From assembly GCA_964187785.1 (NCBI GenBank), contig OZ076409.1:6388001-6452000 (forward strand): a stretch of 64,000 nucleotides of DNA, in the 5' to 3' direction. Below, in pieces: positions 13,724 to 61,315 of the stretch. The notes under the pieces were generated by a model. The model was not told where the DNA came from. It did no database searches and saw nothing but the letters and a program-made list of their open reading frames with translations. The number at the start of each line of letters is the position of its first letter. Within the stretch, counting starts at the first letter, position 1. Made by a program: the position numbers and the translations under genes. Origin of the DNA: Amphiscolops sp. MND2022 (Eukaryota).

Positions 13724-13726
13724 ATT

Positions 13727-13740
13727 TGGTGCGACTTGTA
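13727..13740 (+). promoter_or_regulatory. Primer binding site (TGGTGCGAC...)
   Basis: TGG, the complement of tRNA CCA, lies 3 nt downstream of the 5' LTR; cognate tRNA not identified. Confidence 0.65.
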
Positions 13741-15554: not shown

Positions 15555-15558
15555 AAAA

Positions 15559-23564: not shown

Positions 23565-23569
23565 AAATA

Positions 23570-25197
23570 CGGAATACAGAAAAAAGCACACAAAGAAAAT
23601 TTGAAAGAAATGCAAAAGTTTGAAGCTTACTGTGAAACTGAATGAAAAATATTTCACAAAAGATAATAAACGAAAGAAATCGATATGAAACTATAACTAT
23701 TTTATAAATTGAGACAAACTACCTCAACACAAAGATTTCAAAATTGATAGACATATTCACTCGCCATCATCAACCACAAATAACTCTTCTTCTAGTTCAA
23801 CACATTCTCTCCAAAGATTACCTGAATATACAGCATATTTAAACTCAGATACAGACATACTGGATTCCTCATCCTCAAATCCCAGTCCATCCGCTCCATA
23901 TACTCCTGATAGAGTACCAACAACACCCACCAATACACCTATAACCCAAACTCAAACATTAATATTAACAACTCAATCACAACCTATTTCACGAAATCTA
24001 ACATTTGTAGAAACAAATTCACCACTTTCTGACTCCAATGATGAAACACCTACAATACCAAAGACACAAGATACTTCAAATATTTTAAATAGACCTCCTC
24101 TTCCACCGATTACTACCACTCGTTCTATTCATATCCCTGATCCTAGCTCAGTCCTACAATACATGAATTCTTGTCCACATAAAGTACCAACCGCAACGAA
24201 AACAAAAAGAGAAACTCCTTTACCTACATTACCACAAAATCTTGATTTACCATCATCAAGTAATACTCCAATAACATTTTTACCAGAAACTTCATTGAAA
24301 TCACCAACAAAGAAAACACAACAACACCCAACTCCTTCACCATCTGAACTAAGTTCATTCACATTTTCTCAAATATATCCCAAGCTTGAATTACAACGTG
24401 TACATTCAACCAACACCTCTTCTTTAACAGATCTATATCATAAAGATAAAGATTCTGACTCAACTGCTAGTACTAGAGTACCAAGACATAATTATAACCT
24501 TCGATCTCAACATTAAAGAAATTCTCAAGAATTACAATCTTTAACTAGTTCAAGTACAAACTCAAGACTACTTCGACAGCACGCCCAACCCAGATTGGAC
24601 ACTTCTTCTCTTTCCTCATCTCAACCCACTATACCATCTTCTCTATCACTACCATTTCAAATCACATCAGGATTTGAAACAGCTTCTCTTCTTTCTGAAG
24701 AGCCACTAACTATATCAGATAGCGCAGCTAAATTTTCACGAGTTTACTCACCTAGTTCAATAGCATCAAACTCTTCCATACAATTACCTGAATATTTTTT
24801 AGAATATTTCTCAAGACCTCCATCACCAAACCCTCACGAATATCCTATTCGTGTTAATTCAAAAATTGTTTGCACGCTTAACGAAGATCCCCGATACACG
24901 GTCTTACCTGCAAGATTTATAAACAACAGTTCACTCTCAACTCAAAGAAAACAAAGAGAACTACGAAGATTACAAGAACAACAACTCACATTAAAATTTG
25001 AAGTAGAAGTCACATTCAATTCGTTAGGACCTCATCCATTCTCTCTTTCAACAAGAGTAGCACACAAAACAACCCCATCACCATTCGTAGTCACATCCAT
25101 TTCTTACCTTTGTGACGCAGATTTACCTGAGATTAGAACAGGACATATAAACTTTTTTAATCCCTACTCCGGACTCAATTATAGATCAATATTTTAA
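23570..25197 (+). pseudogene. Pro/Ser/Thr-rich accessory ORF between pol and env (interrupted)
   Basis: ORF pieces 24163-24516 and 24595-25197 share one frame; ends 2 nt before the env ATG. The 5' boundary is approximate. Confidence 0.6.
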
Positions 25198-25199
25198 CC

Positions 25200-27775: not shown

Positions 27776-28216
27776 CTGAAAAGCAATAACTTAAAAAACA
27801 AATTAACCTCAGAAAAAGTTCAAAAAATTATCAACTAAATTCTTCTCAGTATTAACTTTCATTCAAACCCAAATTCTCACTCGGACCGGTCTCTCCTTTT
27901 CAACTCAACAACAAATTCACTTGCCCACCACAACTCAACTCTCAACCAGAAGACTTCAACTGGATTTTCAGTCCATCTAAAAGACCGAAATCACAGAAGT
28001 TTCTATTCCTGGAATAGATGCCACTGTGATTGTTGATGTTTTCAACCCATCATTGACTCAGTATTCCCATATTGTAAGTACAATTTAAACTTTAATTTTA
28101 CCAAACAATTTAATGGATAAAAAAGATATAACGAAACTTTTCCTTATTATTAGAAATAATATAATCAAACGTTATAATCATTATTTTAGCTCTACAAAAA
28201 CACGCAAGTTTAAATA

Positions 28217-29485
28217 ATGGAATCCTTGCCCGAAATTGATGTAGTTAACTCTACTCCCTCTGAATTGCTTGCATCCCCTTTGAATATAACTATTCAACAA
28301 AATGTTAACGAAGATAATAACTCTTCCTCCAACTCTCAAGACCCCACAGAAACTATTCCTATTGAACAAGTAGATCATGTTAACGCAAGATCTCAAAAAC
28401 GAAAGTACCCAGATATGACTGCAGACAAACCTTTTATGGAATCTGGCGCTTGCCCTCCTTTCATAAAACCAATTAAACAAGATGACGATAGAGATTGTGA
28501 ATTAGTTCCTATTCTCTCGTCAAAACACTTCACCTTTCAATCTCAGTTAACTTCGTTATACATGATTCCAACAAAATACAAATTCATCATCAGAGAATTT
28601 AAAAATGATTATCATACACCAATTGCTTCAAAATTGATTACCCCATATGATTGGTGGTTAAACAATAAAGTGAAAATTTTCTCACTCCAATACAACTTCC
28701 TCAGACCATCTCCATATGATCTTCGAACCGAAGAAAATGATGCAAATTTTTTGCCATATCAAATCAAAAAGGCTCACCACATGACTTATCAAAAGTTTAT
28801 TCAATATAAAGAGCCCGATAATTATATATTCTTCAACTCCAAATATACATCGCCATTCACTTTCAACTCAGAATATTTAATAGATCATACCAAAACAAAA
28901 AGAAAACTTAGATATTATGACCCGCTGAAACAAAGTTTTCTCTTCCTTCCAAACGATAACCCAAAAAGACCAATCATTGTACCACAAGAATACCTCATTC
29001 TGAACGACGATTCGTTACTACAAGAAGATATACCTCAACATAAATCTGATCCTCTTCCTCCACTTCAACATATAGCCTCTCAACCTTTGGGAGACTGTGA
29101 AAAATCTTATTTTCACGCAATGACCAAAAAGGGATATTCGAATAATGAATTAATTTTCATTATTTCTCATCTGCTTTCACTTCTTACAAATGGAAATCAC
29201 AAAGAATATAAAAAGGCAAAACAAGAATCGCCTAAGAAAACCAAAAATGATATTCCCCAACCACAAAGTTTTCGCCCAACAGACGAATTACAGAAATATA
29301 TAGAAATTCTGAATATCATAAAACCGTATCATCATCCGAACCGAGATATTCTTATAACAATCGCTGAAATCGTAAATACCCTTGAACAAGCTCGAAGCAT
29401 AATACAAAGTATCGTATTTTATACGACAAGAATTAGCCAATCAGCTTTGTGCATTCGCACATCTTTAGACGAATTCAACTTTTGA
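28217..29485 (+). CDS. Post-env accessory ORF, 422 aa, unknown function
   Basis: Uninterrupted ATG-initiated ORF inside the LTR element; no recognisable motif. Confidence 0.65.
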   Translation: MESLPEIDVVNSTPSELLASPLNITIQQNVNEDNNSSSNSQDPTETIPIEQVDHVNARSQKRKYPDMTADKPFMESGACPPFIKPIKQDDDRDCELVPILSSKHFTFQSQLTSLYMIPTKYKFIIREFKNDYHTPIASKLITPYDWWLNNKVKIFSLQYNFLRPSPYDLRTEENDANFLPYQIKKAHHMTYQKFIQYKEPDNYIFFNSKYTSPFTFNSEYLIDHTKTKRKLRYYDPLKQSFLFLPNDNPKRPIIVPQEYLILNDDSLLQEDIPQHKSDPLPPLQHIASQPLGDCEKSYFHAMTKKGYSNNELIFIISHLLSLLTNGNHKEYKKAKQESPKKTKNDIPQPQSFRPTDELQKYIEILNIIKPYHHPNRDILITIAEIVNTLEQARSIIQSIVFYTTRISQSALCIRTSLDEFNF

Positions 29486-29911
29486 AAAAATGCATCGACC
29501 TTAACTGGTAATTATGGGATAATCACTCTAAAATTGTTAACACTTACCACTTAATCTCTTAACAACCTGTCAAAATTAATTGAGTCTACACGTATATGCC
29601 TGCTATGCACGATTATAATACATGCTTGATGTTAAAACACTCTTTTAAAATAAAATAACATAAAAAAATTTCAATCACGACTTAAAAATTTTCAACAAAA
29701 TTCCTCAATTGCTCCTCTTTTTAATGGACCGATTTCAACAAATAAGTACTTATATGAAAGATATTCAAATACCCTTCAAAAGACTTCCAAAATACAACAA
29801 CCTAATTCTTAAAGTTAAAAAGTTATAATATCACAAAGTTCAATAAAAAATGTCAACTACGAAATTCTATTTTCAAAGAAAATTTATTGTAAACAAACTA
29901 ATCTATTTTAG

Positions 29912-30376
29912 GTGAATATCGTCACAACTGCTTCTTCAGCATTCCTTCCTCCTCTCAGGCCACCCATTCAAGAAGAATTCCAAAGTATCTTCTACAACTT
30001 TCACGAAATTTTCCCATTCTTCAATATGACAACTATTCATTCAGGCGACATAGACTGCCCGATAGCTCCTCTTCTTTCAATTTCTTCAGCTCGATTGCGA
30101 TCCTTGATCCTGAAAAAGCATTTAACGACATTAAATGCGCAGCTTAGAACAGACAAAAAGGCAGACCCACATCTTACAAGGATGATATTGCTTAATATGT
30201 TCCAAATATTCCAAATAACAAGAATAAATTTCGACCAATATCTCCATATTCATAAACATCCTGACACTTATTCAACCCAACGAGACGCCACTACCCAAAC
30301 AGAACATACTACCATCAAGCCCAAACGTTTAGTACGAAATCTATCCAGTAGAATGCGTTCTGAAATGGAAAAATAA
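29912..30376 (+). CDS. Post-env accessory ORF/exon, 154 aa, unknown function
   Basis: Open frame begins immediately after actaatctattttAG| (branch point and acceptor). Confidence 0.45.
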   Translation: MNIVTTASSAFLPPLRPPIQEEFQSIFYNFHEIFPFFNMTTIHSGDIDCPIAPLLSISSARLRSLILKKHLTTLNAQLRTDKKADPHLTRMILLNMFQIFQITRINFDQYLHIHKHPDTYSTQRDATTQTEHTTIKPKRLVRNLSSRMRSEMEK

Positions 30377-30940
30377 CGTCTAAATTCGTATTGGCCTTCA
30401 GACGATAACGATGATACTGACGAAGAACTTCAAAAAGACCCTCCAGAAGCACTTATAGATGATAATTATCCGCACAAAACATATACTTACGTTTCTTTCT
30501 AATATCAACAGACGCCATCAACAACACCCGTCCACTCCCATCTTCGAATCCCACATCTTCAACGATTGATCGTCGCAGATCAGCACCCATGTTCAACTTC
30601 ATCGCCGCCCAACAGTTGCCCATCTTCATTCATCTGCTGACCCTTCTTCATCCATCTTCCAATCTTCAATCGTCACCCATCCAATTCTCAGCCGAAGATG
30701 ATCGATAATTAATAATAAAGAAAACTCAAAGAAAAAACATTGTTAAAAATTAAAAAATCCTTTATTCACACCCGTACCGATATTTATTTGCTTTATTTTT
30801 AAAGAATAATTAGTAATAATTATTATTTTTCGGTGCTATCATATCCAAAAAATTAACAAATATTATCAACAAATCTTTTCAAATTTCAACAAAACCATTC
30901 AAAATTAAATCAAGCACATTGTTCAAATCAAATTCGAATA

Positions 30941-31234
30941 ATGGCAAACCCAAATTCTCGACGTTTTCAACATTTGTTACATAACAAACCCGCCAAAGTT
31001 AATCACAACCTGAAATCTTTTCAGACAAATTTCACGCTCGATGGAAAAATTTTCTCTTCTCATCGATATTATTTCAATGACTCTTTGACCTTTAACTCGT
31101 ATGATGTTTGCTCACGTTTGTTCAATGCGAAGTTCTTTCAAAAACTTCAACAGAAGCATCAAATTGAGCATCTACCAGTTCAAAAAACAAGACGACGAAA
31201 GCATAGTGAAAAAGAACACTTTGACGCTTTTTGA
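30941..31234 (+). CDS. Post-env small basic ORF, 97 aa
   Basis: ATG in good context (ataATGG); basic KTRRRK near the C-terminus; lies just before the PPT. Confidence 0.4.
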   Translation: MANPNSRRFQHLLHNKPAKVNHNLKSFQTNFTLDGKIFSSHRYYFNDSLTFNSYDVCSRLFNAKFFQKLQQKHQIEHLPVQKTRRRKHSEKEHFDAF

Positions 31235-31438
31235 ACTGTAGTCGCACCTACGAGGTGTCAATCAAAATTTTGACAATTCGAGGTACACCAATGAGTCGAA
31301 CTTACATCACTCTTAACGAGACTTATGCCAATCATCCATCTAATGAAAAATGTTAACTAGCTGAAACGCTAAGAACATTTAAACAAAAATTTTTCTTCAT
31401 TTCAATTAATGATGCTACTTTAAAATTTTATTTTATTC

Positions 31439-31453
31439 AAAAACCGGGATGGA
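31439..31453 (+). promoter_or_regulatory. Polypurine tract-like site
   Basis: AAAAACCGGGATGGA directly abuts the TG of the 3' LTR. Confidence 0.65.
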
Positions 31454-31721
31454 TGTACTGACCTACATTAATAACCAATGGCATTTAGATGTTTATAGAA
31501 TGTTCTAGAATGTACATTTATTTGTTATTGAATGATTGTAAATCTCTACTCCTTCAGAGAGAGAAAATAATAATCAGTATTCAGTTGACTTCCTTTTTGT
31601 TCTGCTTCTAACACCTCGAACTAGTTGTAATAAAGTAAGCTAGCTAGCCTGTCTCTCAGCCGCTTTTAGTAGTTGTGAATAAGACCATCAAAAGAAGTAA
31701 CCAACCATTAAAAGCAGCACA
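31454..31721 (+). repeat. 3' LTR (268 bp)
   Basis: TGTACTGAC...GCAGCACA followed by the ATAT TSD. Confidence 0.95.
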
Positions 31722-31799
31722 ATATGTTTTTCACGCAATTTAGACGTTGGCAGAAGCGTATGCGAAAAATTAAACTGAATCAATTTTCTCATTTTTTAT

Positions 31800-39842: not shown

Positions 39843-39931
39843 TTTTTGTCTTCCCGGGTGAAGGAATTCCTTCCATACACGGGTATGATACCCGTGTATG
39901 GAAGGAATTCCTTCACCCGGGAAGACAAAAA
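39843..39931. repeat. Perfect 89-bp palindrome (44-bp arms, 1-nt centre)
   Basis: TTTTTGTCTTCCCGGGTGAAGGAATTCCTTCCATACACGGGTAT-G-ATACCCGTGTATGGAAGGAATTCCTTCACCCGGGAAGACAAAAA. Confidence 0.95.
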
Positions 39932-44960: not shown

Positions 44961-45550
44961 GCAAGAACACAAAAAAAAACAACGAAAAGAGACAAGATAC
45001 ATAGGTTTAATGACTTTCGCCTCGAGTCATTTCAATACTTTCTTCATTTCTAGACGTTGAAGCAACATTTGCTAGGCTGGTACCACCAGTTCTACCTTCT
45101 ATCTCTCTCGAACTCTTTCCTGGCAGTGAATCAATTTTTGATGACAGGTTTTCGATCATTTTCAGAATCTCCCTCTGGTTAACTTCAGTCTTTTCCTGGC
45201 TGATTTCTCTTCTCTCGCGGTCTCAGGCACTACGATAGAACTAGCGGGGAATCTCTCCTTGAAATTCCATTTTGATGAACGTTTAGGCATTTTTTAATAC
45301 TTTCCAATTCTATCTAAGGGGTGAAATTTACTATAATCTGCTTTTTTACGACTCAAAATTAAAAAATGAGACGGCGATTTTGAATCGTTTTATCGTTTTT
45401 TAAGTATCACAGTAACAAGCAAAACGGTTTAGATATTAGATTCTCAAGTGAAATCCGTACAAATGCCGCATGTATATTTATTTTTTTCCTCAATCGCGGG
45501 GAACAAATACGTACAACCTTCAGGACTCGTTCCACTTGGCGTCCCATGAA

Positions 45551-45661
45551 AGTAGTATACGAATTCCCGATTCGGGCCAGTCAAATATTTTTTTTAAAAA
45601 AATGTTGATTATTTTATCAAAAAAAATCAGCGTTTTTTTCACAACTAACTTAAAAAATAAC
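45551..45661 (+). repeat. Maverick left TIR (~110 bp, imperfect)
   Basis: Reverse complement of 60041-60152. Confidence 0.9.
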
Positions 45662-45736
45662 CAAGGTAAACCATCTAAAAAGTAGTCATTTTTCACAACT
45701 GAAAAATTAACAAAATTGATGAAAAATAACTATTAA

Positions 45737-46129
45737 ATGAATTATTTATCATTCAAAGAATTTGTTAATAAATATGGATTAAAAAATGGAGCAACTTCCA
45801 ATGTAGAAATAAAAGAAATCTTAAAACTCATGAACACATCTTGTGGAATATATATGAGAGATGATAAATTTATAACCACCAGTGGTATAGTTAACTTACA
45901 TCCAACTAAAGGAACACATTGGGTTATGTTTACATACCAAAACTATTTCGATTCATATGGCTGTCCACCACCACTAAATATAACAAAACAAATTAATCAT
46001 GGTATCTATTCAGAATATCAAATCCAGAAAGACGAGTTATTTTGCAGCTTATTGTTTGAATGTGTTATATCTTACACAAATTATAGGCTTCAAAAATGCA
46101 GTTTTAAATTTATACTATCAAACTTTTAA
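45737..46129 (+). pseudogene. Adenain-like cysteine protease (frameshifted at the catalytic Cys region)
   Basis: GIVNLHPTKGTHWV..YFDSYGCPPP..YQIQ, then AAYCL in a shifted frame. Confidence 0.8.
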
Positions 46130-46180
46130 ACTTAATTAAGCAAGCTTAGAAAAAAAATTCAACAAATATTTTTTTCTTAA

Positions 46181-46366
46181 ATGAAGAAAATTAATAATTA
46201 TTCAGCTCAATTTAAAGTTATTCAAAAGCCAGAGAATGAAAATAATAATAATAATATTCATAAGCAAAGCTCCTTCGGTAATAATTCAAAAAAGAAATTA
46301 TCAAAACAAAACCAAGAATTCATAAATAAGATATCCGCAAGTGTATTTAAACAATTTTTTTCTTAA
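46181..46366 (+). CDS. Maverick small hypothetical protein (61 aa)
   Basis: TAAATG start; abuts the next gene. Confidence 0.45.
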   Translation: MKKINNYSAQFKVIQKPENENNNNNIHKQSSFGNNSKKKLSKQNQEFINKISASVFKQFFS

Positions 46367-46369
46367 TAA

Positions 46370-47412
46370 ATGGATCTATCAAGTTTTGTAACCTATGATA
46401 AAAAAGAATCTCTTTTGTTGAGTATTGCAAAATCTAATCAAGAAATTGTTGAAAATACACATTCTCAACCACAAGAAACTTTAGAGTTTAAAATGAATAA
46501 ACAAAAAGAATCTTTTTCATTTGATATTCCACTAGACCTACCAGAACAATGGATGATGGGAGTAACAAGTTTAGAAGTATATAACACTGTTTGTAACATT
46601 ACTGAAAAAATAATAAACTTAAACTTTTTACTACAGAACAAAACTTAAAAGAATATAAATTTGCAACTGAATTTATACCAAAGATAAAAAATTTATATGA
46701 AACCTCTAATAAGGGAATCTTTGATATAGAAGAAATTTAAAAACTTATAAATGATGTTAAAATTAAAAAGGTTGTATTTCCTGAAAATTATTATGATGAT
46801 TTAAATAAAATCATTGATCAAATTAATCAAAATATTAAAGATAAAACAAATATTCTTGATCTTCATGGTATTGGATCTGTATCTAATTGCTTGGGAATAG
46901 AAATACCACCAGGAGCATATGAATTAGTTGATATAAATAATGCCATCCAACAAGAAATTATTAATTCTTGTGGTTCTTTTCTTGATTCTGATTTTAAAAT
47001 CAACATAGAAGCAGACACAATATCAATGAAATCAGTTTTAACAACCTCATATTCCATTTATTTCAATCTGAACTTAACACCCTTTTAGGATTTACAAACA
47101 AGGGCTACTCAGCAGGAACTCATATATCAGAAAAACCAGTTATGATAACAACGACAGACAAAGTTAATCTTAAATGTGATTGTGTAGATGGTTCAATTGT
47201 TAATGGTATACGAGAACAAATCTTGTTTAGTTTTAATCTTTCCTCCCCACCAGGATATAAAATTATAAAAGAACCCAATATTATTTTGTATAAAAAAAAC
47301 AAACAAAACAAGGTTAGATAGTATTCAATTTTTCCTTGAGGATAACAATCATAACCCAGTTGATTTCAACGTGGAGACATTAACATTTACAATTCAAATC
47401 ATCAAGATTTAA
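46370..47412 (+). pseudogene. Minor capsid (penton-like) protein, frameshifted
   Basis: WMMGVTSLEVYNT..NITEK; IEIPPGAYELVDIN; VNLKCDCVDGSIVNG..LFSF..PPGYKIIKEP..IQFFLEDNNHNPVDFN. Confidence 0.75.
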
Positions 47413-47501
47413 GCTTAATACAAACCAAAGGTTTACAAACTAAAAGTTTGCAAACTGAAAGTTTGTGCTGAAGAAAAATGAATATTTTTTTCCAATAAAT
47501 A

Positions 47502-47903
47502 TTGAGCTTCAATAAATTTAAAAATAATTCATATTGTGTTGGTGGAAAACATTATTCCGCTACCATAAATATTCGTGGTGTTATTACTCAAAATAAAAAA
47601 ACAGGAGCACCTGTTAAATTATTAAGAGGTACTTGTCCAACTTGTAAAAGAAATAAATCACTTATAGTATCTGATCAAACTATTTCAGCCGAGGGATTGG
47701 GTCACTTCTTTAAACATATTGGCAAAGCTGCAAAAAATGTTGGAAAGAAAATACTCAATAACCCAGGCCGTGCATTAGAGCTAGCAGCAAATATTGGAAC
47801 TGCAGCAGCAAGTAAAAATCCTCGAATGATAGCTGCAACTGCTCCTGATATTATAAAATTTGTTCATCAAGGGAAGGGTTTGTATTTAGGTAAAATTCAT
47901 TAA
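47502..47903 (+). CDS. Small basic protein with Cys motif and amphipathic helix (putative virion core/membrane-lytic protein)
   Basis: YCVGGKH..GTCPTCKRNKS, then EGLG-HFFKHIGKAAKNVGKK; C-terminal GKGLYL. Start codon appears to be non-ATG. Confidence 0.6.
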   Translation: MSFNKFKNNSYCVGGKHYSATINIRGVITQNKKTGAPVKLLRGTCPTCKRNKSLIVSDQTISAEGLGHFFKHIGKAAKNVGKKILNNPGRALELAANIGTAAASKNPRMIAATAPDIIKFVHQGKGLYLGKIH

Positions 47904-47952
47904 TTAATTCAATAATTAAATTTGAATTCAAAATTATTCTAATAAATAAATT

Positions 47953-48882
47953 ATGTATTCAATTCATAATCGAGATGATTTAGAAAAATGAAAAAAATTG
48001 CAAGAATCAAAATCTTTAATAAAAGCTGAAATATTAAAACAACTCCTAGGGAAGCAAGACTTTCATTATGATATAGAAGTTTTTGAACCTGTTACTGTAA
48101 AACAGGCTGAAGCTACTAAAAACCAGAAACAATTATCTGAAAAACAAATACAAGCGCTACATGATTCTTCTCAAACAACAGTACAAGTAATAGAAAATCA
48201 AACACAGGTTATTCGAGAATCTAGTAACACCCTTAATAAAAACTTACAAAAATCTTTTAAAGAATACGATGAAATTACTAACCGTAATAATCAACTCATT
48301 ACTAACTTAGTTAATTCAAACCAAGTTGATTCTAGTATCGTTAAGACAGTTTCTAATTTGCTTAATGACGAAAACAAAAGTCAATTTTGTTTAGAACCCA
48401 TTCATGGGTTAGAACCCATGAATCTAAATTTATTCACAATTAATCCCCATAACCCACAACAGGTACTAATCAAAGGTTCAACAATGACTTTCGAGAATGG
48501 TAACACGTATAATTTAAATGATCCAGATCTTTCATATTTTATAACCTATACACAGCTTGATAAAGAAATACAAAACGAGAATCTAATTTATAATTTTTTA
48601 AAAGATATGAAATATGATCTAAATTATGGAGATAAAAAATCGAGTAGATATAATATAATTAAGTATTTGTTTCAACACCAATTAGGGAGTGGAATAAAAT
48701 TTGTTTTCCTTCCATCTGATCCAGATGAGCTTGTAGATCAACTTAAATTAATCGTGTTAGAGAAAGTAGGAGGAAATGATAATCCTATGCTTAGTGAACA
48801 ACTCATAGCAATTGCAGATCAACTCCTGGAGTATGAATGTATTACAACAAATCAACACCAAAATATTGTTTCAGCATTTTGA
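47953..48882 (+). pseudogene. Maverick conserved hypothetical protein
   Basis: ATG 47953 with an early stop; C-terminal LGSG..LPSDPDELVDQLKLIVLEKVGGNDN..IADQLLE motif of the kind seen in Maverick ORFs. Confidence 0.6.
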
Positions 48883-48911
48883 TTAAAATTAAAAATTGTA
48901 TATAAATAATA

Positions 48912-49201
48912 ATGGATATTCAATCCAATGAATTGAAAAAAGAAATTCAAGAATTGAGAAAAAAAAATTTGAAAACAAATCAAACTATAATCAATCCAAT
49001 GAAATGGATAATCCATCTAAAGATAATCAATTCAATGAATTGAAAAAAGAAATTCAAGAATTGAGAAAAGAAAATTTTCAACTTAAATTAAAGTTGGAAA
49101 GTCTATCAGAAATGATTTGGAACTGCTTTGAACAACTAGGACAAAAACTAGACAAAGATATGAAGAACCTAAAAGAAGAAATTATGTATTCGAAAGATTA
49201 A
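48912..49201 (+). CDS. Maverick small coiled-coil ORF with an internally duplicated start region
   Basis: caatgaattgaaaaaagaaattcaagaattgagaaaa occurs twice (~48927 and ~49033); ORF 49004-49201. Confidence 0.4.
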
Positions 49202-50168
49202 TTTGTTTAAAAAGGATCCGTTTGTGGACTAAAGATTTTATACTCTGGATTAGATTGATTACATATTTTATACCTACTCCCATTTTTATCTTCTAACCTG
49301 TTAATTAATAAATAGTTGTATTTTTCTTTCCATGCCTCTCTGCACAAACTTTTGAATTCATCATGAGACATATCAAAACCAGCAATATCTCTTTCAATGT
49401 TTGTTGAAATAAAATTATGATATTACTATTATTGCGTCTGGTGCGTTTAGGCAAATCGAAATATGATTGTGCTAAATAATAAACATCTAAATCATTATGT
49501 CTTCCTCTAGTGAAAAATGGATCTATTAGTTTTTGATTACTATCCAACATATCATCAAATACAACACAACAATTTTGAAAATCTTGTATACTTTTATCTT
49601 CTAGATATTCTTCTATTACTATACGCAAAGCGCCTTCGGTGTCTTCTAATTCAAAATCTTCATATTGATTTGGAGATCTAGTTTTTATATGTATTTCTTT
49701 TTCTTTATCATATAATCGAATTAATTGTAATTTATTTATTAGCAAATGAGTCTTACCACAAAATGATGACCAACTATTAATGTTCTATTACAGCTTTGCT
49801 GGCCTCCGGTATTATTTTCATCATTATTATTTTCATCATTATTTTTTGTGATATTATTTTCATGATTTTCATCTTTATGATTTATTATACGCGAAACACC
49901 TTCGGTATTATTTGTATAACTATTATTGTCATGATTGATAATACATCTTTTTAAATGTTTTGATAACTAAGTTTTATTGAATTCTTTATTACAGAAATCC
50001 CCTTTTTGCTTTTTTATTGAAACATTCTATACATGTACTATACAATTTACCATTTTTATATTTGTAAAAATCTGTTTTCAGTATTTTACACACTTTACAT
50101 CTTTTTTTATTCTCACAATCGGAACAGACAGATTTTTCGATACTTTTTCCACAAATTATACACTTCAT
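49200..50168 (-). pseudogene. A32/FtsK-like packaging ATPase #2 with N-terminal Cys-rich domain (frameshifted)
   Basis: TAAATG start MKCIICGK..CSDC..CKVC..CIEC; Walker A RTLIVG.SFCGKT (frameshift); Walker B CVVFDDML; FTRGRH..YYLAQSYFDLPKRTRRNNSN. The 3' end is approximate. Confidence 0.8.
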
Positions 50169-50191
50169 TTATTTAGTAAAAAATCACTAAA

Positions 50192-50282
50192 TCACTAAGC
50201 AAATTCACTAAGAGCATGATGTTTTAAGTGTAACTTATTTGCTTAGTGACAAAAAAATGCTCTTAGTGAATTTGCTTAGTGA
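50192..50282. promoter_or_regulatory. Intergenic perfect 26-bp inverted repeat
   Basis: TCACTAAGCAAATTCACTAAGAGCAT (50192-50217) / ATGCTCTTAGTGAATTTGCTTAGTGA (50257-50282). Confidence 0.8.
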
Positions 50283-50333
50283 ATTTACTAAGAAAATTAC
50301 TAAGAAATCAAACCCATTTTTTGGGTACTTATT

Positions 50334-51360
50334 TCATTTTAAACTATTTGCGATGCCAGCTTTACCGTAACTAATTGCTTGTTCCATTATTATATTTTTA
50401 AAATCTTCTTTAGGTTTGTCTGAAATTAATGGTTGTTGCATTCTATCGAAGTAATTGTCTATGATGGATTCATTCACTTTTATTTTATTTTGTTTACAAT
50501 AATAAACATAATAAAAAGCTACATTAAAAGGTGTTATTTCAATTGTTTGATCTGACATCTCTTCTAAAAACACCTTGAGTTGGTTGTATTCTTCACCTGT
50601 AAAGAAATAACTTTCATATTTTACATAATCCTCAGGACTCCATTTATGTTTAGTTGTATCATATACTACTTGATACTTTTGATTGAGTATTTTATACTTT
50701 TGTGATCTAGTGTCAAATTCATTTACACCAAATTCTAATTGGTCACGATATTGTGTCCAATTAAGTTGTTTGATACTATAACAACTCATCATTGTTTCGA
50801 AAAATGTATCTGGATTATTTATTGTGATAAATAACTTAAAACAATTTTCTCTAACAACAGGTAGAACATCCTTTGCATAATGTGCAAGATAAATAACTTG
50901 TATATTATGATGTCTTCCAAACCGGAATAAGTCTTCTACTTTTATTTTGAGTTGCTTGTAAGCACCCGCATCATCTAAAATGATTGTTTTACCAGCAAGT
51001 GATTCAACGTTAATATTTTCTAACTGCAACAATTGTATAAATCTACCCGGGAATTCGGCTTAATCTCTACCGAATACTATAAAATCGTTTTTAGTTTGAT
51101 CTAAATAATACTTCAGGAAACTAGTCTTACCTGATCCACTAGTACCATACACCAAAAAATGACATTTAGTATTTGTGATTGGTTTGACTTGTGGCTCGTC
51201 TTTTGGTTGATCAGTTAGATGGGACTTTTTAAATCCCTTGAATTGTTTTAGTTTTTGGTATAATTTTTCGTAATGTCTAGGTCTAATATAATACCAATAA
51301 ATATATAAAACTATAATAAAGATTACACATAATAAAACCTATATAAAATTTTTTATTCAT
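50334..51360 (-). pseudogene. A32/FtsK-like ATPase #1 with N-terminal hydrophobic anchor
   Basis: VLLCVIFIIVLYIYWYYIRPR; Walker A LVYGTSGSGKTS; Walker B IILDDAG; FRFGRHHNIQVIYLAH..LPVVREN; stops and a frameshift upstream of 51032. Confidence 0.8.
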
Positions 51361-51374
51361 TTATTAAGAAATAA

Positions 51375-52229
51375 ATGAAAGAAAAGAAGAAAGAAATTGC
51401 TAAAGAAATATTCTCTCCTGTAATCAAGAAGTTTCAAAGAATTCAAATACAAACTCACTATAAAGATGAGTGTTGGAGTAATGATCTGATAGACAGGTCT
51501 AGCTTATCAAAATAAAACAAAAACTACAAGTTCATTTTTACAATAATTGACAATCATACCAAATATGCATGGGCGATTCCTCTCAAAGATAAGTCAGGAA
51601 AAAGTACAACAACTGCATTTAAAAGTCTTATTGAAAAAGCAAAAAGAAAACCTGATAAAATATGGAGTGATAGAGGTAAAGAGTTTTATAAAAAAACATT
51701 TTTGGATTTTCTGAAAAAGCAAAACATTCAAATTTATTCAACTAATTCAGATTTAAAAGCTGTTTTTGTTGAACGCTTCAATAGAACATTATTAGATCTT
51801 ATCAAAGAACCCATATACATTGAAGGGAAAGCTTGTTGGTTGAATCATCTGGATGCTGCTTTACAAAAGCATAACAATCGTGTCCATGGTACAACAAAAA
51901 TGACACCTTTTGAAGCTAATAAAAAACCAATAGACCCACCTACCTTTGGTAATAAACCGAAACAACCCAAATTTCAAGTGGGAGATTATGTAAGAGTTCC
52001 TGACAAAAGGAACATTTATTCAAAAGGTTATACACTAAATTGGAATAGAGAACTTTTTAAAATACATAAAATTAATCCAACTAACCCAGTTACGTAAGGT
52101 TTAGTAGATGAAAACAACGAACAAATAGAAGGAAAATATTATGAACAAGAACTTTTAAGAAGTATACTCAACTTTAAATCTAACAACAAAACGTTAGAAA
52201 GTATGAATATTTTCCACCAATATGAGTAA
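51375..52229 (+). pseudogene. int: Retroviral-like (rve) DDE integrase of the Maverick
   Basis: WSNDLID..IIDNHTKYAWAIPLKDK..WSDRGKEFY..VERFNRTL..FQVGDYVRV..KGYTLNW; one frame with two internal TAA. Confidence 0.92.
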
Positions 52230-52246
52230 TTATATTTAAATAAATA

Positions 52247-52967
52247 ATGTCAATTCATAAATTTGGTTATAGTGCCGAAAGCTTACAAAAAGATAAGATT
52301 GAGAATCTTGAAAAAGAATTCGAATCAAAAACCAAATTATTTAATATAAAACTTATTGATATGCAAAGCACCATAAATGGTATTTCTGACAAATTAGAAA
52401 ACTTTGAAAACCTACAAAGTGTACAAGAAATTAATTTTGATGATGGTGAAACCAAGGTAGTAGTCAATGCAAAGTTATTCTTAGACATAAATAAAAATAT
52501 AGAAGACTTGAAAATCAACCTGAAATACTTAGAACAAGATGTTAAAAATAAAATATTAGAGAAGAAGAAAGAAATTATTTCGGAAGCAGTCAAACAAGTC
52601 AATGAACAGCAAGTCATTTTACGTAATCACTTCGAACGAAATATTTTTTTAGAATTGGAAAACTGTAAAAATCAAACAGTCAAAGATACTATTCAATTTC
52701 TATACAACAAAGGATTGTTTGACTCATTGGAAAATAAAGACCAAATCTTTAATGAGTACTTTTTTTAGTGATGAATACTTGTTGAAAAAATACGGAAAAG
52801 AAATACAAACATCAGATTGTGTGTATTCTTTATCAGATTTAGACTATTCAACGCGAGAAGATATTTTGAAGTGCTTAAAAATAGATGAATACAAAGATGT
52901 TGTTGATCTTAATTATAGAATGAAACTAACCGATACTGAGATAAATTTCATACTTTTTGAAGAGTGA
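52247..52967 (+). CDS. Maverick hypothetical coiled-coil protein(s) (ORFs 52247-52768 and 52719-52967, likely one frameshifted gene)
   Basis: Overlapping ORFs meet at a T7 run; E/K/L-rich. Confidence 0.5.
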
Positions 52968-53033
52968 ATACTTGTAATAAATTGTGAAATTTAAACTAAA
53001 TACTTTATAAAACCAAGTTTTTTTTTAAATTAA

Positions 53034-53580
53034 ATGAATGAAAAATTGTACCCTTGTTTACAACAAGATCAGAATCTTGATCTTAGATTAAAAGAAATAA
53101 ATAGTTTTTATAATTCAATTCAAAATATAAAAGATATTCAAAATTTTTATAATCATGAAGCTGAAAAGTATAAGAAGAAACTAAAATATATAAAATTATG
53201 AACGGTTTAATTCAATCTATTGATGGAGTTTCAGTACTAGCAGTATCATCAACATGTGTCACGTTGAGTGTCACAGAAGTTGGACTTGTTGTTGTACCTA
53301 TAGCAAGTGGTATAGGTGCAGGTTTATGTATATTTAGTAAAATTGCTGGAGAGTATCTGAAAAGAAAAGAACAACTCATAATAAAAAATATACTCTTGCT
53401 GGTAGAACATTACATGATTTCTGTAAATTACATTCAAAATGTTTAGAAGACAATAAAATTGATCTTAATGAATACAACAAATGAAAACACACTTACGAGG
53501 TGTATAAAAACAATAAAACTAAACTAAATTCTGAGTTTACTTTTTTAGGAGAAATTTATTTTGCAAAAATAATATAAATA
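53034..53580 (+). pseudogene. Maverick small membrane protein (frameshifted)
   Basis: TAAATG start; hydrophobic GVSVLAVSSTCVTLSVTEVGLVVVPIASGIGAGLCIFS; downstream SKCLEDNKIDLNEY. The 3' end is approximate. Confidence 0.55.
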
Positions 53581-53621
53581 TAAATTTTATATCATCATCA
53601 TGAATATTTATTCTTTTATAA

Positions 53622-54840
53622 ATGGAATTATATTCATTGAAAAATATGGATAAACCTATTCATAAAATTGATTTTATTAAATACTCACCTAGTAGTTTAG
53701 CTACAATCAACAACAATAATTCAAATATTTCCATCATCTTCCCAAGAGAAGATGCATATATTTGTTTACAAAACTCATTTATATCAATAGAAATTGAAGT
53801 TCTTGAAAATGATGATACAAGATATGCAGATGGTGATCAAATAAGCTTGGTCAACTTTGGACCCGTTGCTTTATTTAGTGAAGCTAAGTTAACTACTAGT
53901 TCGGGCAAGCATTTAGAAAAAGTTGATAATCTACACCCAATTTAATTGATGTATAAACTTTTAACATCTAATCTTCAAACAAGTCAATTGATGTATGGGT
54001 TTGAAGAATCACAAGCAACTAGAAGACAAGAACTAACAAATAATAAAACAGAGAAAGGAACCTTTTTTGTGAGAATAAAATTAACTGATATTTTTGGATT
54101 CGCTGATCAAGAAAAAATAACTTATGGATTGGGTTAGTCTCACATTAAAACGTAATAATAATAATGATCCTATTATCAGGGACAATGGTGTGGATGCTGC
54201 AAAAATAAATATAAAAGACATCTCCTGGTAAATTCCACACTACACACCATCAATGGAAAACCAACAACTCGTGATGGATCAAATATTAGACAAAGATCCA
54301 TCTGAAATATATTACATGGAACGGATTGTATTTAGAAAAGATGTTAACACGAATAATAATTGGGCATTTGAATTAGGCAGCAGTGGAGAATCGACACCAA
54401 GTTTTATAATTGTTGGATTTCAAGCTAGAAATAAAGTTGATTCACAAACACATGATAATGCAACATTTGACAGACTTCCAATTAGTAGTGGTGTTTGTAA
54501 AATAGGATCAGAAAAATATCCCGATGATGGAATAGAATGTGATTATGATAGAGATAAAGATGATCAAGCATATAATGAAATTGAAAACTTTTATTTGTTA
54601 AAAAGTGAAACTAATCTACTCAATCCATTCATTGATTTGCACAAATTCAGAACAAATTATAATTTTTATGTATTTGATTTATCCAAACAAAAAGATACTA
54701 TTGCGAGTCAACCTATTAGATTAGAATTTAAATTTAATGCTGCCATTGATGTAGCAGATTATATAGCTTATGCCCTAGTCCTAGCACCTAAACTGATAAG
54801 TATCAGTAGTGATGGACAAAGGCTTTTTGATTTATTATAA
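53622..54840 (+). pseudogene. Major capsid protein (double jelly-roll, hexon-like), interrupted
   Basis: ~400 codons in 3 pieces: IHKIDFIKYSPSS..ISIIFPREDAYICLQNSFISIEIEV..ALFSEAKL; PSFIIVGFQ..IGSEKYP..FYVFDLSKQ..IRLEFKF. Beta-rich; position and size fit a Maverick MCP. Confidence 0.8.
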
Positions 54841-55155
54841 GCAAAGCTCTTTCAGTAAATAATTATAATATATAAAATAAAATTGATTTTATTATAAAAA
54901 ATTGATTTTATTATATAAAATTGATTTTATTATGTAAATTTATAATTTAATGATATCAGAGATTCCGTATAAAAAAATATATTAAATAAATTTATAAAAT
55001 AATATTTATATTTTTATAAAATAAATATAATTATAAAACATGTGCTCGATCACTTATCAACTTCACAAGTTGTTGATGGGTTAGATTTTCTTTTTGGTAC
55101 CAAATTTTCAAATAAACTTCTTCATCTGTTTTCTTGCTACCATTATCATTTATAG

Positions 55156-58100
55156 TTAAATCTTATGATACAAACCAATTAATTTCAAACAATATATACA
55201 AGGACAATCACCTTTTTGTGTGTGTTTATCCCATGGTAAACTTTGTATTGGATTTATATACAAACGTTTACCGTCAAAAGGATTCAAACACAACTTAGGT
55301 TGTTTTTCAACTGTAAGGTTGTGTAAATTAGACCTGATTGATATATTTGTAGAAGTTGATGTTTCTGAATTAAACAATGAATTCTGATATTCTTCACATT
55401 TGGGAGCTTTTTGTAATCCTTTTTGTTTCGCTTCTTGAATGATACTATTGTAACTAAAAGAATATGACTTTGATCGCAATGCTGTGAAGGTATCTAACAC
55501 CAAAACTGGACTTGTTTCAATTTTCATTTTTCCTTCAACTTTTCTGTTAATAGGATCATATAATTCATGAGATTTGTGTATTTCACTGAAATCAAATTCA
55601 TCTTTGTTTTCTTGTAAAAAGTTTATTAGTTCTTGGTGGTTTGTATCAAAACACAGAATAAAACTATCAGTGTCCATGTAGTGTAGTTGTATGGATTGTT
55701 TCCAATATGGTTGTAAATTGTTATAATAAAATTCATACATTAATAGTTTTGATAGTTCTAAAACTGTAAAACCTAAATAAATTGGTTTATCAAAGACTGT
55801 TTTTTCTTTATCAAACTTGTACACACTAAATTAGAATAATGATCCACAATGCCTTTGAAACTTAACTTGGATTGTCTTTTTATTATTTGATCTGTTTGAG
55901 AATGATCAATGAATTCTAGATTGGTTCTATCTCTTACATTTTCTATTGTCTTGCCGAAGAAAGCATTGTTCATTAAATTATAAAGATCTTTTTCAAAGTT
56001 TGTTTTCGCTACTGTGCGTTTCTGAGTAATATGATCGATATATTTACCTAACCATGGACTTTGCTTGAAGCGGTAGATTGTATGTATCTTCGTTACTTTC
56101 ATCCCTTGGTTAAGATAAAACTTAAACATTCTATAATGTATCATATATTTCGATTTATTGGTTACATCACACATAAGTTTTGATGTTGGTTTGTAATTAG
56201 GTTGATTCACACTATTCATATATCCTGAGAATAAGTCTGGATCTGCTTTTGTTTGATGCGGACAAAAAGGAAAGTTTTTTGTTTTTTCTTTAATTTCAAC
56301 AGGATATTCTGAATCACATTCTATGAAGTAACCATATTCATTATCATCAGGTATTTGTAACAAATCCTCTACTAATTGATCTTGTGAGTAGTTTTCTGGA
56401 AGTTGGAGTTTTTTGAATTCACCTGTAGGAAGATATTGACTCATTGCCCATTCATATAGATTTTTTGCATCAATGTATAAGATTTGTGTATTTTCATCAG
56501 ATTGCACGTGACGATCACCCATAACACTTGAAATTCCTCCACGGATATTATTTTCAAGTAGTAGCAGTGGGTTTTTATCTTTTATGAAGTCTAAGTTTAT
56601 ATCAATCAACTTCAAACCTGCTTTCCATGTATAACCAGGTAGAGAGTAACTATACAAAGGATTAAATTTATATTCTCGTGTAGAATTTTCCACAAAGTTT
56701 TCAAATACATCAGCTAATTGAAGAACATCCATTTTCAAGTATAACATAGTTAATTCTTGTCCGTTTTTTATATTATTTTTATCAATTAATTCTTGGGTTC
56801 TTTTTATATCATCATCTGATGGATAAAATTGTGTTAATGTTAACCAATAATCTTCTTTGGTTAGATTTAATGGTTCCTGAAAGTTATCAAGATTTAAGTA
56901 TTCATATGGATAAGCTAATTTCTTTTTGAATAAATCATCACTCATTCCTTCCAATTTCATGATAGGAAAATTGTCTAAACTCTTAACTAATTTATCTAAA
57001 CTGGAAGAAAGAAATCGGTATGAATCTAAGAATCTCAAACAACCTACTTGTACACTAACATAATTTTCCAGTGATTTTGGAATTATCGTTGGGTTATAAT
57101 TTTGATTGTATGCTTCGGTTAAAAGTTCTTCAAATATAAGATGACAATCATACCCAGAAAAGTTATGGAAAAATATAGGAACAAAACTTGATGACCTTTG
57201 TTTACAATTTATGTTACATATATAATGAGCTGCTCCTCTGTAATTTCCTGTTAGATGATCATGATCTCTAACCTTAGTACACAAAGCGCCTTCGGTATTA
57301 TCGAGTGAATTTTCACAAAGCCAGCATATGGTGGATTGTTGAAATGATTCTTCTTCTTCAGGAGTTATTTGTAATTCTAAGTTTGTTTTAAAATATTTAT
57401 TTGCTTCTAGTTCTAATTTTAACATTTCCTTTACAAACCACTTGGTACAATCTGTTCCAAAGTATGAGCTGTACCTGTTTCCAAATGGTGAAGTTGCATA
57501 AAATCCTACTGCAATTGGAATTTGTTTAAATAATACATTAGGGATGTTTTGAGGTTGATTAATACATTCAAAATCTGCATATACTCTAATAGGTAAAGGT
57601 ATTTTCATGTGGTGGTCTTCAAATTTTAGATGATCTTTATAACTGAAACTGATTTTAGTTGGTTGTTGTTTTATACATCTTTCCATATGATCAATTAGAA
57701 CTGGTTGTGAACTAAATGCTGTTAAACATCTTCTACACACCCATCGCATGTGTGAATCTTTATTTATTAGACAATGCAACCTTGTTATTAGACAATAGTG
57801 ATTCTCATACAATAACAAATCTCTTTGTGGTTGTAAGTGTTTTTTGTTAACGTGGATTGGTGTTAAAACATTTCCAGTGAGTTCAAATACATTTATGTTT
57901 AAATTATTTAGGTTTTCGAACTTGGGAATATCTTTAACTTTCATAGGGAACTCTAATCCTTTCAGGTTGAGTTTATTTAAATGAATAATATATTTTGATA
58001 TTCTATCTTTATGATTCTCAACTGGATACAACTGGGCTGAAATACACCATAAAAAACAAAATTGATCATTATTCTTTATATTTATAATTGATTTACTATC

Positions 58101-58802
58101 CCTATTTTTTCCTGGTAACTCAACCCATGAACTAGCTTGGATATCATTAACTTTATATATTTCTAAAATAACTTCTTCTATTTCTTGAAACACAAAACCT
58201 GATCCTTCTAATTGTTCATCATCTAATTTCTGCATTATTGTGTTATGAGTATCTGGTTGTATATTGTTTTACCTTAGATCTGATTTTGTCCATCTTTTAA
58301 ATACAGCTTCTTCTTCTCCATTACCGAATGTAACTGTTTTTATAAATTTAGCTAAATAACTCAATTGATATTTATATCGAGGAAAATAATTTTTATTTAA
58401 TACTTTATTTATGTTATGTTCAAGATTTTCAGTAGGATTTACTTTCAATTTAATGTATGTATTTTCATTCATAATTATTTCTACTCCATTACCGAAGGTG
58501 CTTTGTATATTGTTTTGTTGACGGTTTCGACGGTTTTGTAAATGATTTTCACTTTGGAAATGTCCTGTTTTATCAGATATATATCTATTACAATCTTCAC
58601 ACCAAACACGTCGTTGTTCGGTTTTATTTTTATGTTCATCTGAATTTAGATGAGAACTTTTTTCTGATAAGGGCATATATGAATTACATTTTTTACAATA
58701 ATATTGATTTAATTTTTCATGATGTTTTACTGATTTATAATGATCAGATTTGAAACATTTTTTATAATTTGAATTACAAATTCTACAATTTTCCATTTCC
58801 AT
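55156..58802 (-). pseudogene. polB: Protein-primed family B DNA polymerase with N-terminal zinc fingers and an endonuclease-VII-like insert
   Basis: CRIC..H..SVKH-type fingers; VYADFE; CWLC..VRDHDHLTGNYRGAAHYICN; FHNFSGYD; FLDSYRF; LYIDAKNLYEWAM; LMNNAFFGKT; YMDTDS. Frameshifts near 58260 and 55830. Confidence 0.95.
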
Positions 58803-60040
58803 TTATTAAAGAAATAATAGTTCAATTAATATTTTTCAATATGTCTTTTTAAAAAAAATGGATTTTTTTTTATTTTTCTCACCTGTGGGTTCAAGATGAG
58901 AAAAATTGTTAGTTACAAAAGTTGTTCATATTTTGGATGTCTCCAATTTTATTCACTGACTTTTCACGGTAGGACCAACCAGTCGTGAGAAAAATGAGAA
59001 AAACCCATCTTTCACACCTGTTTTCTCACCTGGTAATCAGTGGGTCCAAGATACAGAAAACTTTCTCCCGGAAAAAAAGTTTGTCTTGTTATTGTCTATA
59101 ACTTTGATTTTCTGCGTCGGCATTGTAGGATGTTTCAGTTTCGAGGAAAATGAAAAAAAAACAATTTTCACACCTGTTGGGGCAGGTGGTAATCAGTGGG
59201 TTTTCAGTAACGAGCTGAAATTTGGTGGGGAGACTTGTTTTCTGACGCCCTACATTTTTGTTCCTATTATGCTAAAACTAACGGTTGAGTCAGTTCCTTT
59301 GATCTTGCAAGTTTCAAGGTCAACCCTGATCTCAACACCTGTTCGGGTCACATACAAGCTAAGCATACCATAAGAAAGATCATATATGAGAGTGGTCCTA
59401 ATTTACAACTGTTACTAGTCTTACTCCAACCATTTTCGAGAAAATTGGAAAAAAACCTGTTCTTCACACCTGTTTTGACACCTGGTAATTAGTGGGTTGA
59501 TTCTACAAAAAACCCTCAGTAACAAATTTTGTGTAACTTTTGATTTTCTACAAGTTTAATTCTGATGTTTTTCTCAAAAACGATTTTCCGTTAAGATATT
59601 GAACAATTTAACTTTTCCCATGTATTAAGATTAGGAATAAAAACTTTCTATATATAGATTTAAAATTTTTTCCGAGATATTTGTATCGGTTTTTTTGAGT
59701 TTCAGATTTTTATATCGGTTTTTTCATTTGTCTCGGAAAATTTATATGTCTCGAAAAATTCAACAAGTGACGTTCCACTTGATGTTATTTCAATACCATA
59801 TGTTTCCACTTGAATGCTACTTTCATTCCAAAAATTTTTGCTTCACTAATTTTCTCTCTTACCATACACACAGCAGAGCTGGCTTTGCATACCGAAGGCA
59901 CGTCGCATATTGCACCATAGAGGTTAGTGAATTTTTGCTTCATGGCAAAATGTTTATTAAAAAAATTGCTCATTGATTTTTATTTTGTTAATTTTTTAGT
60001 TGCAAAAAAGGCCATTTTTAATGGATTTGCCTTGAAAATA

Positions 60041-60152
60041 TGTTATTTTTTAACAGTTAGTTGTGAAAAAAACGTTGATTTTAAAAAAAATTAATTAACA
60101 ATTTTAAAAAATATATATTTGACTGGCCCGAATCGGGAATTCGTATACAACT
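60041..60152 (-). repeat. Maverick right TIR
   Basis: ...GACTGGCCCGAATCGGGAATTCGTATACAACT followed by the CATGAA TSD. Confidence 0.9.
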
Positions 60153-61315
60153 CATGAAGACAGAGATATTGGAAGCTCAGTTCGACCTTGTCGAACAGAG
60201 ACACTCAGTTTGTTCATGCTTCCCGAGGAAAGCAAGCGTCCACTTCCTGTATGAGTTGGGACTCAGCTTCCCTTCGCCTTCAATTCCCACCTTCCAAGAC
60301 GCCGAAGCTGAACTTGGCCGTGAAACCATCTGGGGTGATTCATTAAGCACTTTTGTGAGGGAGAATGAGATGAAAGTCATGACAACCTATTTTCCTCGAA
60401 TTTTTAAAAATATATCACAAAACTAGAAACGGATCTTTTTCACTGGATCTTTAGGATATTGGGGATAAGAAATTTGCAACGACACAAATCCCGGTCTCAG
60501 ACCAAAGTCTGGGTCGTGAGAACAACTAATTATTGTTTCCACGTGGCCATAAGTACAAACAGCACACAATCAACGTTATAGTCTAAGAACTAGTTATTAG
60601 CTATTTAAATTTTGTTAGATCACAACACAACTTAACATCAACACAGCAATTCATTTTCACAATGAACCTAATATTTTCTTTTCTTAGTGCTTGTCCTGGG
60701 CCGTACTACACAAAGGTTGTATTTCCCAAGAAAAACATTCAAAGATTTGTAACAACTACATTTCCAGCATCGTTTTTACAATCATTCAAATGCAATAAAT
60801 AAGTTCACATGTATACAATTGTTCCAACAATACCACATTTGTGGTTCAATTTCACTACAACGAACAATTCAAGTTGAGGCCGCTTTCGAAGTCGGCGTCT
60901 CAATTCTTATTTTTGAGGCCACTTGCAAGGCCGTAGGGCTCCCGCATCATATCTCAGGCCGTTAGTCGGGCCGTGTTTTTCAACTATTGGTAATTGTATA
61001 GAGCTTTTTCAAGATTTGATATAGATCCCTGCTTGTTGCTGTCAATCTGTATAAAAATACGCACTCGTTAACTAGTTATCATTATTAAGTACTATTATAA
61101 AAGTTTAGCACCGTTGTTTCAAAAGTAGTAGGATAATTAATGGTAACATATTTCCGTTTTCTTTCCTTCAATCTTTCCTTTCTGTTTCACTTTTCCTTCT
61201 ACGTAGACTGAGCTTGATCTGTGACAAAATTCACAGCTCAGCTGGGGCAGTGAAACCAGGGACTGTAGTAACGTCTGAAAAAGACTGTTCTACAGGTACT
61301 AGTACCCGATTTTTC

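Follow-up and report, generated by a model that had tools for sequence, protein, structure and literature searches.

TAAATG at the gene starts of a decayed Maverick in Amphiscolops sp.: candidate initiator promoters resembling those of poxvirus late genes

Where do the transcripts of a Maverick/Polinton element begin, and which RNA polymerase makes them, if the element encodes none? This question is raised by a locus in a 64,000-nt window of the Amphiscolops sp. MND2022 assembly (GCA_964187785.1, contig OZ076409.1, positions 6,388,001 to 6,452,000 of the forward strand; coordinates below are those of the window). Positions 45551-60152 are a decayed 14.6-kb Maverick, a member of a multicopy family. 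The original prediction for this locus was that nine Maverick genes start at TAAATG, as poxvirus late genes do, and that the element may be transcribed by a helper cytoplasmic DNA virus. The best reading of these starts is that the genes have compact initiator promoters, which would give nearly leaderless mRNAs; the choice of polymerase is more tentative.

TAAATG overlaps the start codons of nine genes, six on the forward strand (45737, 46181, 46370, 51375, 53034 and 53622) and three on the reverse strand (50168, 51360 and 58802), and two more genes start with TAATG (48912 and 52247), all as originally listed. Two further genes, at 47502 and 47953, were added to this list; they have no TAAATG and carry TAAAT 6 nt upstream. 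With 13 genes counted, TAAATG is found at 9/13 gene starts compared to 19/499 other ATG triplets of the Maverick (Fisher p 6.9e-10; the background of 499 includes the gene start ATG at 47953). Window-wide the motif is not enriched (70 observed, 82.6 ± 10.5 expected), and hence the signal is positional. At the remaining four starts TAAAT begins at position −6 (47502, 47953 and 52247) or −9 (48912), a range that was set post hoc and is therefore given without a p-value. The TAAATG starts at 45737, 51360, 51375 and 58802 each stand at the head of a gene run on their strand. The intergenic gaps are as tiny as had been claimed, 3–165 bp with the exception of 315 bp between the converging ends of the capsid and polymerase genes, given that the ends of broken genes are estimates.

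Seven start codons are backed by relatives, namely those of the protease, the 61-aa open reading frame (ORF), the 133-aa gene, the ~300-aa gene, the integrase, the major capsid and the protein-primed DNA polymerase (pPolB), the last by the length of the relatives only. The 61-aa ORF has the same start register in 119 of the 120 listed homologues, and the 15 commonest N-termini of the 133-aa gene, which cover 118 of its 120 listed homologues, share the 47502 register, where this copy lacks the ATG with which family members begin. The six other starts (46370, 48912, 50168, 51360, 52247 and 53034) were placed from ORF anatomy alone.

The mundane alternative named in the original prediction is an AT-rich Kozak context, to which chance may be added. 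The GC content of the Maverick drops to 27%, and the background frequency of the motif climbs with AT content. Against this stand the enrichment given above and the base at position −3. All nine xAA-ATG starts have T there, whereas in the background xAA-ATG triplets of the Maverick A (37 cases) exceeds T (19 cases). A purine occupies −3 at 4/13 Maverick starts versus 520/751 starts in 75 related loci, described below, and thirteen AT-rich loci (GC ≤0.30, L044 left out) have TAAATG at 14/115 starts. A or G at −3 is favoured across all 47 eukaryotes surveyed (PMC2241899), and −3A gave the best translation in four systems (PMC10853783). With T at −3 the starts run directly counter to a Kozak context, and AT-matched relatives are without the pattern, so that this alternative turned out to be weak; it is already largely refuted, and we consider it very improbable.

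The sequence upstream of the motif points to a promoter. Positions −12 to −7 before TAAAT hold T in 8, 10, 9, 7, 10 and 12 of 13 genes, respectively, a T count above that at 155 other TAAAT sites (p 3e-5); the vaccinia late consensus has TAAATG over the start codon and T at the tenth base upstream, among other T's (PMC11980589). The starts of ATPase 2 and the integrase lie head-to-head with their start codons 14 bp apart (51358..51377), and on each strand the T located 10 nt upstream of TAAAT comes from the partner motif. With such spacing, two leaders of conventional length could not both lie outside coding DNA. Element sharing between divergent vaccinia late promoters was reportedly described in a 2009 study, which was not located in the literature searched. 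The exact 20-nt divergent spacer gave no matches in viral contigs. Upstream stops or poly(A) sites do not account for the four TAAATG starts at heads of gene runs. A role of the motif as a poly(A) signal of the preceding gene was rejected, since heads of gene runs carry it and the flanks in the related locus L029 are not AATAAA; a trans-splice acceptor was rejected as well, since AG is absent before the starts.

The promoter-like reading was strengthened by T at −3, the vaccinia-like T-tract, the four gene-run heads and the AT-matched relatives that are without the pattern. Each gene would have its own promoter of ~20 bp ending at the ATG, consisting of a T-rich tract ~7–12 nt upstream and a TAAAT initiator that in most genes runs directly into the ATG. 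RNA synthesis would begin at the A's of TAAAT and yield an mRNA almost without a templated leader, to which slippage may add a 5'-poly(A) head. Being left out of this mRNA, the T at −3 would be no obstacle to translation. We put the probability that transcription starts inside TAAAT at roughly 0.7.

Homologues of the Maverick genes are numerous. Those of the integrase form 1337 clusters (identity 83–92% among the 120 listed) and those of the 133-aa gene, 1066 clusters; the 61-aa ORF has 215 homologues, with two subgroups of ~85–97% and ~70% identity among the 120 listed. ENA was the source of all 360 homologues listed for these three genes, and intact relatives of the broken Maverick genes are plentiful. 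Single-protein scans of viral contigs gave no close relative of the Maverick proteins, and clade and capsid alignments added no contig to the set. For analysis of gene starts, 183 loci with DNA were taken from scans. After the removal of 13 duplicates and 5 weak integrase-only matches, 165 loci remained, 78 of them with at least five ORFs of at least 100 aa. The first ATG after a stop was taken as the start, which misplaces some starts, and some loci include flanking DNA. In total, the 78 loci contain 774 starts, with TAAATG at 59 and a purine at −3 in 523.

Only three of the 78 loci are of the TAAATG type: L029 (7/7 starts), L126 (8/11) and L044 (3/5; of its two starts without the motif, one belongs to a truncated polymerase ORF). 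TAAATG occurs at 41/751 starts of the remaining 75 loci. L029 has 38% GC and varied flanks, and 6/7 of its TAAATG starts are at divergent heads. L044, the nearest relative with DNA (~40% pPolB identity), has 22% GC and thus a high background. Hence TAAATG starts are lineage-specific and patchy, and are a trait neither of all Mavericks nor of AT-rich Mavericks. On the FastTree tree of pPolB (51 rows) the Maverick copy clusters with L044 plus three proteins without names (Shimodaira–Hasegawa support 100), and L029 is placed elsewhere. On the integrase tree, which comes with a long-branch warning, L126 belongs to a five-row group with the Maverick family and three loci in which TAAATG is absent or weak, and L044 stands apart.

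These data bear on the possibility that the motif survives as a relic from a former phase, helper-dependent or cytoplasmic, after which the family came to spread in another way. A relic would agree with TAAATG at 3/5 starts of the nearest relative and with the related initiator kept by yeast pPolB elements, TAAAN with poly(A) slippage (PMC6211774). However, a neutral motif would be expected to erode, especially one with the unfavourable T at −3, and the position of L029 elsewhere in the trees points to repeated adoption. We therefore regard a relic as quite improbable.

In some of the loci a different word stands directly before the majority of start codons, of the TATA type in L051, L074, L006, L011 and L012 and of the TAAAA type in L009, L014 and L003, and the divergent gaps of these loci are as short as 15–55 bp. 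By sequence, these words resemble the late initiators of African swine fever virus (ASFV) and those of yeast virus-like elements (VLEs), respectively; TAAAA would equally fit an A-rich Kozak context. The scans also yielded a single ORF (L029:2740-4251) in which a protease-like start is fused to an rve integrase with a chromodomain, and 37 pPolB loci (L147-L183) in prokaryotic metagenome-assembled genome records, which are probably misbinned eukaryotic or viral contigs.

Several observations weigh against compact initiator promoters or against their use by a viral helper. The excess of upstream T's over the 155 control sites is overstated, as the control is mostly coding DNA whereas the starts are intergenic. 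No homologue was found that fixes the N-terminus of any of the six starts placed from ORF anatomy. In a search of viral contigs with a looser 14-bp divergent geometry, none of the matches listed (at least 122) had ORFs of at least 70 aa on both sides, and 16 of the 122 had one on one side. L029 and L126 have only a weak T-tract (1–5 T of 7). Two of the eight TAAATG starts of L126 are direct stop-start junctions, and two more are located 4 and 9 nt past a stop. The four non-TAAATG starts of the Maverick all have their TAA in frame, as would be expected of a stop that insulates the gene and, equally, of decay from TAAATG. The family is present in very many copies, which is easier to account for by host-driven transposition and transcription. 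Finally, A[AT]TAAA is found at or within 40 nt of 7/13 stops (a rough estimate for chance is 5), and the first copy of a 19-nt repeat, located where the capsid and polymerase genes converge, has AATAAA on both strands; both suit 3' ends made by RNA polymerase II (Pol II).

The in-frame TAA could itself be the selected feature, a stop just before the start that insulates genes within transcripts reading through them or, in a compact genome, links termination of one gene to restart at the next, and not a part of a promoter. TAA is in frame at 13/13 starts (at −3, −6 or −9), the stop at 46366 lies 3 nt ahead of the start at 46370, and L126 has the two direct junctions mentioned above. Yet neither TAG nor TGA occurs at −3 among the nine TAAATG starts, though TGA ends 4/13 genes. 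Only one of the nine closely follows an upstream ORF, four of the nine head a gene run and, in L029, six of seven are divergent heads; the T-tract is left unexplained. On balance, we consider a stop-insulator improbable.

Returning to initiator promoters, the choice is between a viral and a host polymerase. As had been claimed, no RNA polymerase is encoded: Pfam searches of the Maverick ORF pieces and family proteins gave no match to RNA polymerase, TBP or TFIIB, the sensitivity being reduced for broken genes. This feature is not discriminating for helper dependence, as it holds for Mavericks generally. Maverick genes may be adapted to a helper virus of the pox or asfar type and its late machinery, in the way that mavirus genes suit that of Cafeteria roenbergensis virus (CroV). 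Such a helper would be the most specific match, because the Maverick encodes no RNA polymerase and its predicted promoters are built like those of poxvirus late genes. We hold tentatively, at somewhat less than even odds, that a polymerase of this type reads the TAAATG promoters. The likeness to poxvirus late promoters is one of sequence only, and the element cannot be filed as a virophage.

Alternatively, host Pol II may read the same TAAAT initiator in the nucleus and produce mRNAs with very short leaders, owing either to an initiator preference of the host or to TBP/TFIIB-like factors that another Maverick family provides in trans. The copy number and the AATAAA-type signals past several stops and in the repeat between the converging genes favour this explanation, as do the start-adjacent AT-rich words that are common in the group (L051, L074, L006; L009, L014). 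It is opposed by the absence of TBP/TFIIB matches from the Maverick in the Pfam searches. Initiators of animal Pol II genes do not typically read TAAAT, and 2-nt leaders translate poorly unless a head is added. Moreover, three probable starts of a long terminal repeat (LTR) retrotransposon in the same window (15559, 25200 and 28217, picked by us among the 13 ORFs listed) all lack TAAATG and carry A at −3. Transcription by Pol II is thus a serious possibility, with the odds nevertheless against it.

Several known systems share parts of this architecture. Late promoters of vaccinia and other poxviruses have in common with the Maverick TAAATG over the start codon and T's ~10 nt upstream (PMC11980589); here, in contrast, the motif is carried by a 14.6-kb element that is integrated and has no RNA polymerase, stands also at the polymerase and integrase genes and is known from sequence alone. 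The ASFV late promoters have a TA(+1) initiator and T-rich upstream sequence, with a median late 5' untranslated region of 9 nt (PMC7163114); they resemble the TATA-ATG starts of other loci and differ from this Maverick in having TATA rather than TAAAT. The yeast cytoplasmic linear plasmids pGKL1/2 (VLEs) combine the TAAAN initiator and poly(A) slippage with short leaders and, unlike the Maverick, encode their own RNA polymerase and have an upstream conserved sequence (PMC6211774).

Among integrating elements, mavirus promoters resemble the CroV late motif (bioRxiv 068312), and types of endogenous mavirus-like elements (EMALEs) bear differing promoter motifs (PMC8547959). Mavirus/EMALE virophages and Gezel-14T are helper-dependent, with promoters that match a giant-virus motif (bioRxiv 2022.07.28.501842, 068312, 2025.10.09.676808; PMC8547959), and mavirus, like the Maverick here, carries pPolB and resides in host DNA by means of an integrase. 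They have protist hosts, mimivirus-type motifs and a known helper, whereas the motif here is pox-type and the host probably an invertebrate. Polinton-like viruses (PLVs) were found in entomopoxvirus occlusion bodies: AHEV_PLV1/2 and CBEV_PLV1 are Polinton-like elements tied to a poxvirus in animals and, in contrast to the Maverick, have either no rve integrase or a tyrosine recombinase (PMC11296320). A term search of the paper and its supplement, as far as their text was covered, found no promoter analysis. The Maverick itself differs from pGKL1/2 further in that the latter, to our knowledge, have no capsid and no integrase.

The assignment of the element to Maverick/Polintons is based on its ends and gene content. 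The left terminal inverted repeat (45551..45657, + strand) begins with AGTAGT, and the right one (60048..60152, − strand) has one mismatch among the first six bases; repeat alignment gave inverted matches of 74 nt at 84% (I1) and 35 nt at 89% (I13). CATGAA is directly outside both ends (45545..45550 and 60153..60158), forming a 6-bp target-site duplication. In agreement with published Maverick/Polinton features (PMC8097293), the element has pPolB, an rve integrase, a packaging ATPase of the A32 type, a protease and a major capsid gene in addition to the AGTAGT inverted ends and the duplication, and it belongs to the Polintoviricetes of the pPolB type with an endonuclease VII-like insert. It differs from other Mavericks in having two ATPases, in near-universal TAAAT at starts, absent from 75/78 related loci, and in the decay of this copy, where a majority of genes are disrupted by stops or frameshifts. 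No introns are evident, and an Rfam search gave no match.

On the forward strand the first gene (45737..46129, TAAATG) heads its strand and encodes an adenain-like cysteine protease, recognized by its homologues and by invariant H61, D72, Q97 and C103; a Pfam search gave no protease match. It is followed by the conserved 61-aa ORF of unnamed function (46181..46366, TAAATG, 215 homologues), and then by a frameshifted putative minor capsid gene (46370..47412) with a TAAATG start 3 nt past the preceding stop. The latter matches proteins of the loci at 46897-47315 and no family in Pfam; the matched proteins are unnamed, and the label is our assumption. The 133-aa basic gene (47502..47903, TAAAT at −6), which we take to be core-like, and the stop-interrupted conserved Maverick gene of ~300 aa (47953..48882, TAAAT at −6) were recognized by homologues. 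The frameshifted coiled-coil gene (48912..49201, TAAAT at −9) was identified from ORF anatomy, its Pfam matches being all sub-threshold.

Two packaging-type ATPase genes lie in tandem on the reverse strand (49207-51360), one with a zinc-finger start and the other with a hydrophobic start. The pieces at 49207..50168 (TAAATG), assigned by homologues, probably form a single gene for the zinc-finger ATPase 1; ATPase 2 (50334..51360, TAAATG), also in pieces, has a hydrophobic N-terminus and is A32-like (Pox_A32, E 3.6e-5, above the cutoff). Past the head-to-head pair, the forward strand continues with the rve integrase (51375..52229, TAAATG), which has in-frame stops and was identified by PF00665 on the intact homologue P0002. 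Next come two frameshifted genes defined by ORF anatomy: an unknown gene (52247..52967, TAAAT at −6), for which an Atlas search gave no usable match, and a putative gene (53034..53484, TAAATG) for a presumably membrane-active protein, with no homologue among the related loci. The double jelly-roll major capsid gene (53622..54840, TAAATG) is in three pieces (PF21738, E 5.4e-11).

It converges with the pPolB gene (55156..58802, − strand, TAAATG), which heads its strand, is in three pieces and has a zinc-finger start and an endonuclease VII-like insert. The pPolB label is based on family B motifs, relatives of 1200–1300 aa and gene context, as no polymerase match was found in Pfam or PDB. Between the two genes, the near-palindromic 19-nt unit is present in 3.3 copies (54877..54938). 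A Mimivirus-style terminator hairpin at 54877-54938 was unsupported (folding z −1.03), and AAAATTGA, the mimivirus early motif, which occurs in this array and near 45712, was set aside, since ~3 occurrences are estimated by chance. The region 58820-60050, ~1.2 kb inside the right end, is without long genes, contains a 66-nt repeat in three copies (D13) and may be an insertion.

Outside the Maverick, positions 13455-31726 are occupied by an 18-kb LTR retrotransposon with LTRs 95–98% alike, which encodes gag, reverse transcriptase, integrase and a Monjiviricetes-type fusion glycoprotein (PF24664) and has extra 3' ORFs, including one of 422 aa at 28217 without a family match. The fusion gene makes an invertebrate host likely. 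The coding strand of the retrotransposon has a strong C-over-G skew. The start of the 422-aa ORF (28205-28219) reads TAAATAATG, a context identical to that of the Maverick gene at 52247, in a single case. An inverted repeat with perfectly matched arms of 44 nt, 1 nt apart, is located at 39843-39931.

We did not find TAAATG starts in Mavericks described in the literature searched, which included few subscription papers and lay apart from preprint supplements, where promoter logos may be present. A virophage-like role of Mavericks has been proposed without promoter evidence in the excerpts of PMC8097293. Virophage-like Polintons are already known, and PLVs are known with entomopoxviruses without promoter analysis. 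The boldest extension of our results, which we think unlikely though worth stating, is that this large endogenous family, together with two or more independent lineages from the environment, lives like virophages as satellites of pox- or asfar-type viruses yet to be discovered, with genes that are silent until the helper late machinery reads TAAATG, with the start-adjacent word (TAAATG, TATA-ATG or TAAAA-ATG) predicting the helper class. The start-codon signature offers a cheap way to sort Mavericks by their sequence and names the likely class of helper, and it makes both Maverick transcription and the virophage question testable. If, on the other hand, Pol II reads the TAAATG promoters, this would be an unusual case of near-leaderless gene expression in an animal.

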